A stretch of 64,000 bases of DNA from a virus (lineage: Duplodnaviria; Caudoviricetes): the IMG/VR virus record IMGVR_UViG_3300035661_000030, positions 24,799 through 88,798 of that record; one strand, written 5' to 3'. The translations under genes and the position numbers were made by a program. The notes beneath the pieces are model-generated. The model worked only from the letters and a program-made list of their open reading frames with translations, did not search any database and was not told where the DNA came from. Positions 17,338 to 17,842 of this stretch are shown in pieces; the stretch's first letter is position 1, and every line of letters starts with the position of its first letter.

Positions 17338-17842
17338 TGAAGTTTTTTGCCTATCTACTCGCTAGAATAGAATAGGTCTTACAGGCTAACTTCTTAACCC
17401 ATCAGTGAACCGCCACTGATAAGCGTTTCCTAGGGCCTTGTTATTAGGCGTCCCTAACTAAGCAAGTCCTAGCAACTAATTCAGTTTGCGAGACTGAATT
17501 AATTGAGCCATATTTTCGATAAATCTATCCGCCGATAGACCTATCTATATATGGCTGTTGCAAGTTTAACGGGAATTCTTTAACCCGTAGTCTGTGGTAA
17601 GCAGACCAACGCCTTTTATGCGTTTTACTTGCTTTGTCCACCTAGTAGCGCGCTTGTCAACCCAACAAGCCCTAGCGGTGGCTCCCTCTTGTTTATTTGT
17701 GGGGAATCACAAGACCGTTATTCGATACGGTCAAACGCTTGATCTTCAGCATTCTCATAACCCCAATCAAGCTATTATGAGGGGAACGGTCATTCATCTA
17801 CCGCCAAACACAGAGTTTTTGAAAAGAACTCTTCAAACTTTT
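17338..17842 (-). ncRNA. Candidate large multi-hairpin RNA (~500 nt)
   Basis: More than 10 hairpins and an H-type pseudoknot; no SD-led ORF; GC-richer than coding DNA. Confidence 0.65.

Follow-up and report, generated by a model that had tools for sequence, protein, structure and literature searches.

A stretch of about 500 nucleotides (nt), rich in hairpins and lying among the transfer RNA (tRNA) genes of a virus of the Caudoviricetes (Duplodnaviria), raises the question of whether one large ornate RNA of the GOLLD or ROOL kind is encoded there, or something else. The stretch occupies positions 17338-17842 of the window, that is, of the 64,000 nt analysed here (positions 24,799 to 88,798 of IMG/VR virus record IMGVR_UViG_3300035661_000030). 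An initial annotation, made from the letters alone, had described it as a multi-hairpin RNA between two repeats, and as a member of GOLLD or ROOL or of a new class of large ornate non-coding RNA. We found that it is a folded, densely structured and conserved RNA region in a phage tRNA island. On balance, it is probably part of a non-coding structured RNA region that is built of cassettes and read from the minus strand within an operon of tRNA and transfer-messenger RNA (tmRNA) genes. According to this explanation, the genome would belong to a phage that has not been cultivated, is low in G+C and comes from microbial mats and sediments; three cassettes, designated A (93 nt), Core (~375 nt) and R (150 nt), would evolve and recombine separately; and insertion of an A-Core-R block beside a pre-existing R would have produced the two repeats.

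Folding, strand and coding capacity

All hairpin arms listed in the initial annotation (14/14 pairs) were found in place. For example, counting from arm starts, ATCAGTG (17401) is followed by CACTGAT (17414), AATTCAGT (17478) by ACTGAATT (17493), and GACCGT (17713) by ACGGTC (17727), and the arms AGCCATA (17506) and TATGGCT (17550) are placed around TCTATC (17524) and GATAGA (17534). The arms of the proposed H-type pseudoknot, CTTGAT (17738)/ATCAAG (17766) and CTCATAA (17754)/TTATGAG (17775), cross each other as described, and those of a proposed closing helix start at 17340 (AAGTTT) and 17835 (AAACTT). The stretch also does lie between two direct repeats of ~150 nt (17183-17335 and 17843-17995), which are ~90% identical. 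Its G+C content is 42.8%, as compared to 33.6% for the window, and 17001-18000 is the most G+C-rich kilobase of the window (47.5%). Folding was compared with dinucleotide shuffles. The minimum free energy (MFE) of the minus strand (507 nt) was -177.3 kcal/mol versus -131.7 +/- 6.0 kcal/mol for the shuffled sequences (z -7.5), and 0/100 shuffles were as good; for the plus strand the MFE was -154.2 kcal/mol (z -5.3).

The helices had been quoted as plus-strand text, and in this respect the initial annotation needed correction: the functional RNA sense is the minus strand, the same as that of the tRNAs and tmRNA, and the plus-strand text shows mirror images of the helices. This assignment was made because the observed changes are compatible with G-U pairing, and far fewer cells are mispaired, when the minus strand is read. 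In three Core sequences, helices predicted by RNAalifold contained 36 mispaired cells on the plus strand and 5 on the minus strand, and one-sided substitutions that keep pairing did so via G-U on the minus strand in 10/10 cases.

Coding in this stretch is very unlikely, and the call of a non-coding RNA stood. The opposite reading, in which what matters here is a protein encoded by the only sizeable open reading frame (ORF), 17594-17902 on the plus strand (102 codons), or by some other small ORF, has next to no chance of being correct. One plus-strand frame does contain an open stretch of 84 codons, but all six frames have 10-16 stops each, and the ORF starts with GTG, extends into the repeat and has no Pfam match. 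Furthermore, its 5′ part is hit by 1- and 2-nt indels in two relatives (L001 and L023, see below) and in population variants, the open stretch shrinks to 69 codons in L023 as a result of the replacement of module A there, and the substitution pattern is that of RNA helices.

Cassettes A, Core and R in related phages

Related arrays were fetched via two neighbour genes, a C92-peptidase-like gene (14307-14855) and ORF87, a small conserved ORF on the minus strand (18158-18421) that is upstream of the stretch and transcribed in the same direction. IMG/VR was scanned six times, and the single real relative, which is also the closest one to the window in that database, was IMGVR_UViG_3300035181_001203 (L001/L002), a viral contig of 112.6 kb. 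Other loci compared below are those of a sister strain (L021/L023), of two lake phages (L008 and L009) and of a more distant relative (L004). Near-identical DNA was present in Joint Genome Institute (JGI) samples and in four microbial-mat or sediment DNA sequencing runs; contigs assembled from those runs contained population variants, and none had a junction by which the element would be lost or rearranged.

The best-supported part of the whole finding is the H-type pseudoknot of module A (17713-17805, minus strand), which was borne out by compensatory changes in relatives. We consider it real because its geometry is kept across variants together with such changes. The 93-nt module contains hairpin H1 (17805-17800/17790-17785), the pseudoknot with stems S1 (7 base pairs (bp); 17781-17775/17760-17754) and S2 (6 bp; 17771-17766/17743-17738), a CGUUU linker, and hairpin H2 (17732-17727/17718-17713) with the conserved loop AUCGAAUA. 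The same geometry (L1 = 3, L2 = 5-6, L3 = 8-11) was found in L008 (11968-12061) and in a variant, A′, in L023 (1116-1207). In the three-way alignment, 6/25 pairs were doubly changed (three in S1, two in S2 and one in H2), 94.5% of cells were paired as compared to 23-52% when partners were slid by 1-3 columns, and the covariation score was 0.347 as compared to at most 0.097. MAFFT puts one column wrong in the pseudoknot strands of L023, which makes the 6/25 and 94.5% counts slightly conservative; in a manual parse of the three variants, all pairs were formed. In addition, the topology recurs in L004 (13728-13803), with stems of different length, and L009 retains H2. A covariance model of module A (R1) detected exactly one copy per array; neither the window nor any of 16 loci had a second one (best extra matches at E 0.12 or worse). 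A-type modules stand alone before tRNA-Gln in the lake phages, ending 5 nt from that gene in both L008 and L009, and Core is not near the L008 copy. In L023, A has been replaced by A′ while the neighbouring Core remains 95% identical.

The segment 17806-17842 (minus strand) forms the 5′ boundary of the stretch, as defined by alignment, blastn and arm positions. It contains a small hairpin, AGAGUU/AACUCU (17832-17812), and the distal AAGUUU (17838-17833) of the proposed closing helix. Homology with L001 starts within it, at ~17841, and neither the L008 nor the L023 version of module A has this piece. The closing helix AAGTTT/AAACTT is invariant wherever relatives carry it, an observation that neither favours nor disfavours the helix.

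Core (17338-17712, minus strand) is predicted to form ~12 local hairpins. It was present in the window strain, L001/L002 and L023/L021 alone, in each case with an A-type module on one side and R on the other, and its identity to the window is 93.1% in L002 and 95.0% in L023; no further match was found in any fetched locus. RNAalifold applied to a 3-sequence alignment of the shared 400 nt gave 129 pairs, including 3 with compensatory changes, 10 with one-sided changes that keep a G-U pair and 5 broken pairs, some of which fall at an indel misplaced by the aligner. Variable columns made up 8.1% of paired and 17.0% of unpaired columns. As a further point in favour of the helices, one Core base pair is, by eye, lost on both strands in L001. 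Two candidate contacts were rejected. Positions 17341-17354, at the 3′ end of Core, and 18666-18679, in the tmRNA, are complementary over 14 nt, which is the chance level for 4.5 kb (~1-2 such pairs by our own estimate). Similarly, an 8-bp pairing, AAGCGUUU/AAACGCUU, appeared in a sub-alignment, but its GCGUUUG is just as conserved where Core is missing (L008 and L004), and about one such 8-mer is expected within 400 nt by chance.

The repeat R is present in two minus-strand copies. The downstream copy (17183-17335) ends 4-5 nt before tRNA-Leu(UAA) (17093-17178, minus strand; called by ARAGORN and matched by the Rfam tRNA model at 53.2 bits) and constitutes the 3′ end of the A-Core-R segment held in common with L001. 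The upstream copy, a 150-nt cassette at 17843-17995, keeps the ancestral 5′ flank, judging by the order ORF87-spacer-R-tRNA-Leu in L004; window 17849-18421 aligns to L004 15111-15670 at 73%. Other copies are located at L004 15109-15259, L008 13786-13946, and L023 735-885 and 1585-1735. Among seven copies from four phage lineages, 7 of the 33 predicted pairs showed compensatory changes, for example, CCCGAG/CUCGGG to UUUGAG/CUCAAA. The loops GUGCAUUUAGAGUUGCAACUCUA and GAGCAAAUGCAAAUACUC are invariant in these copies and hold a palindromic UGCA (in UUGCAA and AAAUGCAAAU), and in the predicted fold the segment UGCAUUU could pair with the AAAUGCA loop as a pseudoknot. In L004, R is found alone and directly 5′ of tRNA-Leu, and the 4-5-nt distance to that gene is the same in the window, L001, L004 and L023. 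In L008 and L009, R is separated from the downstream tRNA-Leu by an HNH_3 endonuclease ORF (in L008 at 13309-13749, minus strand, inserted between R and the tRNA gene). Comparison of these loci shows that R is an independently conserved structured RNA and the usual 5′ neighbour of tRNA-Leu. After the upstream R of L023, positions 880-905 read ...GGCATTTTTTACCTCAGATTGG, which resembles the tRNA-Leu start ACCTCGGGTGGCGGAATTGG with an internal deletion (~10 matching bases), and this segment may be a remnant of a duplicated R plus tRNA-Leu 5′ end.

The layouts of these arrays differ. The order is ORF87-R-A-Core-R in the window, ORF87-R-X-Y-A′-Core-R in L023 and Z-X-A-Core-R in L001. L004 has ORF87′-spacer-R-tRNA-Leu, which aligns to window 17849-18421 and 17081-17330; with a single R in that layout, the window therefore carries an added A-Core and a second R. 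L001 2425-3081 matches window 17841-17180 (A-Core-R) with 92.6% identity, the similarity ending where R ends. Beyond this segment, the upstream part of L001 shows no relation to the window, and the tRNA-Leu next to the block shares just 77% identity. These alignments show that A-Core-R (~660 nt), rather than the inter-repeat stretch, moves between genomes as one block, and that the three layouts form a three-way mosaic broken at the borders of cassettes. Elsewhere in the array, patches of 100% identity to L002 were also observed (16557-16662, matching 12879-12984, and 18444-18521, matching 14326-14403), with neighbouring segments at 75-83%, a pattern that indicates recent patchwise recombination inside the tRNA array. 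A gene of the homing-endonuclease type, for a protein of 317 residues with LAGLIDADG_3 and helix-turn-helix (HTH) domains (20414-21367, minus strand), adjoins the putative promoter region of the array.

Cassette X, which is absent from the window, is a non-coding 112-nt segment that is 98% identical between L002 (13969-14080) and L023 (915-1026; also L021 3009-3120). It is located just upstream of the A-type module, in differing neighbourhoods, and ~75 nt separate X from A′ in L023.

Several other loci contributed nothing to these comparisons. Those fetched via the C92-peptidase-like gene (L003, L005-L007, L010-L012 and L028-L031) either lacked the array or had none of A, Core and R. Matches in high-G+C IMG/VR contigs (L013-L017), in metagenome contigs scanned with a stem-tolerant R pattern (L018-L020) and in the A+T-rich DNA of a Fusibacter metagenome-assembled genome (L027; R pattern, genome contigs) were rejected as chance matches. 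The H2 pattern had 0 matches in genome contigs, and these scans provided no bacterial or prophage copy and no clue to the host.

Known families and competing explanations

The proposal that the stretch belongs to GOLLD or ROOL was not supported. Rfam 15 (4227 families) was searched over the entire 64 kb at gathering score, and over 17000-18500, on both strands and with permissive filters, at E up to 10. At gathering score, only tRNA and tmRNA were found in the window, and at E up to 10 there was no match to GOLLD, ROOL, OLE, HEARO or to any ribozyme, riboswitch, RNase P or intron in 17000-18500; the sister strain (L021, L023) likewise had no match to these families at E up to 1. Sub-threshold noise consisted of tmRNA_permuted (27.5 bits, on tRNA-Lys) and ncS025 (18.3 bits, E 2.3). 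It is thus extremely improbable that the stretch is a highly divergent GOLLD, ROOL, OLE or HEARO missed by the Rfam models: location in a phage tRNA island and size range are all that speak for it, whereas 0/4227 families other than tRNA and tmRNA matched and no IscB/TnpB-type or OLE-associated gene is adjacent. Of the suggested new class of large ornate RNA, the non-coding, structured, conserved and uncatalogued character held up, but that it forms a single large RNA is the less likely reading. In a blastn search (distant mode) of INPHARED phages, the tRNA-Leu part alone was matched, and neither ARAGORN nor the Rfam tRNA model made a call within 17183-17995. A tRNA-like scaffold with a CCA end was considered and rejected, as H2 has an 8-nt loop containing UCGAA but no acceptor strand or CCA after it, and R ends in GGGCAC (by eye). 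To the eye, H2 also resembled the T arm of a tRNA or domain V of a group II intron, a likeness rejected for want of a model match. In kind, a structured RNA in a phage tRNA island is already known, and families A, Core and R are absent from Rfam. In literature searches aimed at GOLLD, ROOL and tRNA clusters, we found no publication describing A, Core or R.

Comparison with characterized systems gave partial likenesses. OLE (RF01071) and HEARO (RF02033) are also large multi-hairpin RNAs, and OLE is associated with oapA-type genes in anaerobic Firmicutes. However, neither model matched, no OLE-associated (oapA-type) gene lies beside the stretch, no large or IS605-type IscB/TnpB ORF is adjacent, and the location is different, namely a phage tRNA operon with tRNAs and an 87-codon ORF without family as neighbours. 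Functional transcribed spacers of bacterial tRNA operons, such as 3′ETS-leuZ, are RNAs excised from a tRNA precursor that have a function of their own; they are short, weakly structured small RNA (sRNA) sponges, in contrast to the long, G+C-rich pseudoknot elements found here. The species I and II RNAs of phage T4 (~120-140 nt) are likewise much smaller, and processing of the present RNA is something that we infer. The similarity to T4 lies in stable non-tRNA RNAs of unknown function among phage tRNA genes (PMC2330249), which correspond to a predicted RNA in our case. The T4 tRNA cluster is one ~1.75-kb precursor with 8 tRNAs, the species I and II RNAs and segB (PMC2330249), and both loci thus combine tRNAs, structured RNAs and a small ORF (segB versus ORF87), with homing-endonuclease-driven exchange in T4 and LAGLIDADG and HNH genes here. 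GOLLD (RF01998), a large structured RNA of phages and prophages, is often encoded next to tRNA islands, and its 3′ part is conserved whereas its 5′ part is less so (PMC12286853). The location adjoining phage tRNA genes is shared, and here, too, the 5′ module A is swapped while Core and R are conserved. In contrast, GOLLD is ~800 nt or more with ~27 helices as compared to 505 nt (~660 nt with R) and ~16 predicted hairpins, the parts of the present element are found singly in other phages, support is lacking for long-range and quaternary contacts, and, as noted, the model did not match at E up to 10. ROOL (RF03087), an RNA of ~580 nt with pseudoknots and no known protein partner or function, occurs in phages and prophages near tRNA islands (PMC12286853). 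The present element is similar in size class, tRNA-island location and pseudoknot content but lacks a match to the ROOL model; the conserved ROOL kissing loop and nanocage architecture are not recognisable here. Loop-loop complementarity in the stretch was limited to 5-nt matches, and the element is known from a handful of mat, sediment and lake phage contigs.

If the region is indeed built of cassettes within a tRNA/tmRNA operon, it would be co-transcribed with the tRNAs from a promoter region at ~20200-20240 to a terminator at ~16000. Consensus matches at these places are a promoter-like site at 20240-20213 (TTGACA-16-TACACT with TG) and a bidirectional terminator-like hairpin at 15992-16017. 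In tRNA operons, RNase P cuts the tRNA 5′ end, and tRNA 3′ processing trims the upstream tRNA. The 5′ processing site of tRNA-Leu(UAA) would define the 3′ end of the upstream RNA, and RNase P cleavage there together with 3′ processing of tRNA-Arg would release ORF87-R-A-Core-R. The released stable folded RNA or RNAs would then act in trans during infection, as we suppose by parallel with T4 species I and II RNAs, GOLLD and ROOL.

Several observations weigh against this explanation. Sequencing runs that matched the stretch were 4 DNA and 0 RNA, and consensus promoters and terminators were no commoner than in shuffled sequences (promoters: 10 found versus 11.9 expected). Helix support for Core is weak: it comes from three sequences that are 93-95% identical, in which 3 compensatory and 10 wobble changes stand against 5 broken pairs. 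Also, wherever Core is present, A and R adjoin it, an arrangement equally in keeping with one large RNA, and AAGUUU is found just 5′ of A′ in L023, in another sequence context, from where pairing with the AAACUU that ends Core on its 3′ side would be possible; such a closing helix could make A and Core one domain. Accommodating these last points, A-Core-R may instead be one globally folded RNA of ~660 nt and of a new, GOLLD/ROOL-like class, in which A and Core are closed by AAGUUU/AAACUU and joined to R, the 5′ part is variable and the 3′ part conserved, and the invariant palindromic UGCA loops of R might mediate self-association. We regard this as possible, if unlikely. The three cassettes are contiguous in 3/3 Core-bearing genomes and move as a block, the MFE fold closes the 507 nt with AAGUUU/AAACUU, in L023 an AAGUUU directly precedes the differing A′, the R loops UUGCAA and AAAUGCAAAU have not changed in any of the 7 copies, and GOLLD, near tRNA islands, is divided in the same way into less and more conserved parts (PMC12286853). 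On the other hand, other phages carry A-type modules by themselves, and likewise R, and covariation is absent from every long-range pair. RNAalifold also predicted another, proximal closure, in which a G-to-A population variant at 17809 is left without compensation. A search for complementary loops gave no match longer than 5 nt, and a 6-bp A/U-rich helix is expected by chance. The further-reaching idea that A-Core-R is a single self-assembling RNA with an exchangeable 5′ pseudoknot, and as such a third, unrelated ornate family of tRNA islands beside GOLLD and ROOL, is rather improbable.

Another explanation, which we consider distinctly improbable, is that A and R are cis-acting structured leaders of tRNA-Gln and tRNA-Leu, respectively, involved in processing, protection or attenuation and devoid of function in trans, with Core as a similar spacer. 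The short and constant distances of R to tRNA-Leu (4-5 nt in the window, L001, L004 and L023) and of the A-type module to tRNA-Gln (5 nt in L008 and L009) are consistent with it, and H2 (17732-17713) with its U-rich tail is terminator-like and is the sole such minus-strand call in the stretch. A transcribed spacer of a tRNA operon can reportedly be functional, 3′ETS-leuZ being said to have been described by Lalaouna and colleagues in 2015 as an sRNA sponge. Yet the U-tract of H2 is weak (3-5 U in the first 8 nt), and the H2 loop and the linker GCGUUUG are near-invariant in four variants while the stems covary, which is unexpected for a plain terminator. Moreover, in the window A is followed by Core and not by a tRNA, and ~375 nt of elaborate hairpins exceed the needs of tRNA-precursor processing. 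It is highly improbable that the stretch is simply a selfish G+C-rich cassette, spread by homing-endonuclease gene conversion during co-infection, whose hairpins are useless to the phage. Such spread would agree with the 100% identity patches (16557-16662 and 18444-18521) beside segments at 75-83%, with a block that is 92.6% identical inside diverged or unrelated flanks, with the LAGLIDADG and HNH genes in the arrays, and with T4 SegB, which favours inheritance of its tRNA region (PMC2330249). However, the compensatory changes in A and R and the one-strand wobble changes in Core show selection at the RNA level, and mobility accounts for spread but not for retention of structure, and is itself compatible with a functional RNA.

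Large structured RNAs of phage tRNA islands, such as GOLLD, ROOL and the species I and II RNAs of T4, have long been puzzling, because no function is known for any of them. The present locus adds families outside Rfam, one of which is a pseudoknot module with clean compensatory changes, and shows how such regions are assembled, namely by duplication and swapping of cassettes and by their transfer in blocks among co-occurring phages with homing endonucleases in the same arrays. If this is general, many candidates for giant RNAs beside phage tRNAs would be cassette arrays, and A, R and Core would become the units. With their narrow distribution, practical value is limited for now.

The surrounding tRNA/tmRNA array

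The window consists of low-G+C DNA (~32-34%) and contains phage genes for tail proteins; relatives carry a Peptidase_S74-type fibre. The minus-strand array extends over 16189-20106 and contains 12 tRNAs according to ARAGORN and 13 according to Rfam at gathering score, in addition to the tmRNA (90.9 bits); 12-14 tRNAs were counted around the stretch in all, every one of them on the minus strand. Within the array, the stretch sits downstream of ORF87, between tRNA-Arg and tRNA-Leu(UAA). The former, tRNA-Arg(UCU) (18444-18518, minus strand, ARAGORN), is the upstream bound of ORF87-R-A-Core-R and is 100% identical to L002 14326-14403. ORF87 has no Pfam or PHROG match. Its product is 97% identical to protein P0042, and L004 DNA aligns across it, in that locus with an 84-residue gene call.

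The tmRNA gene (18574-18981) lies in the middle of the array, and ARAGORN reads an unusual tag from it, ANNVFTFVASFFNAPAFAFAKAA. It is also found in L021 and is ~75% conserved in L008 and L009. The 100-nt segment 19511-19610 matched the Rfam tRNA model (57.2 bits) with no ARAGORN call in the window. It is probably a tRNA with a long extra arm or insert, because at the syntenic place in L005, L008 and L009 ARAGORN calls a 93-nt tRNA-Ile(UAU). A weak match to the tRNA model at 20033-20106 (31.7 bits, barely over the gathering score; no ARAGORN call) could be a degenerate or unusual tRNA heading the array.

Conserved segments other than tRNAs were also observed. A 240-nt segment between tRNA-Thr and tRNA-Pro (19085-19325) is 88% identical to its counterparts in the lake phages (L008 17359-17599 and L009 9868-10108), a conservation above that of most of the array, and it may be a further RNA or a small gene. 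Similarly, the spacers 16408-16551 and 16665-16836 are kept at 75-80% in distant relatives (L004 14386-14533 and 14541-14736). The entire array seems to be filled with conserved non-tRNA elements.

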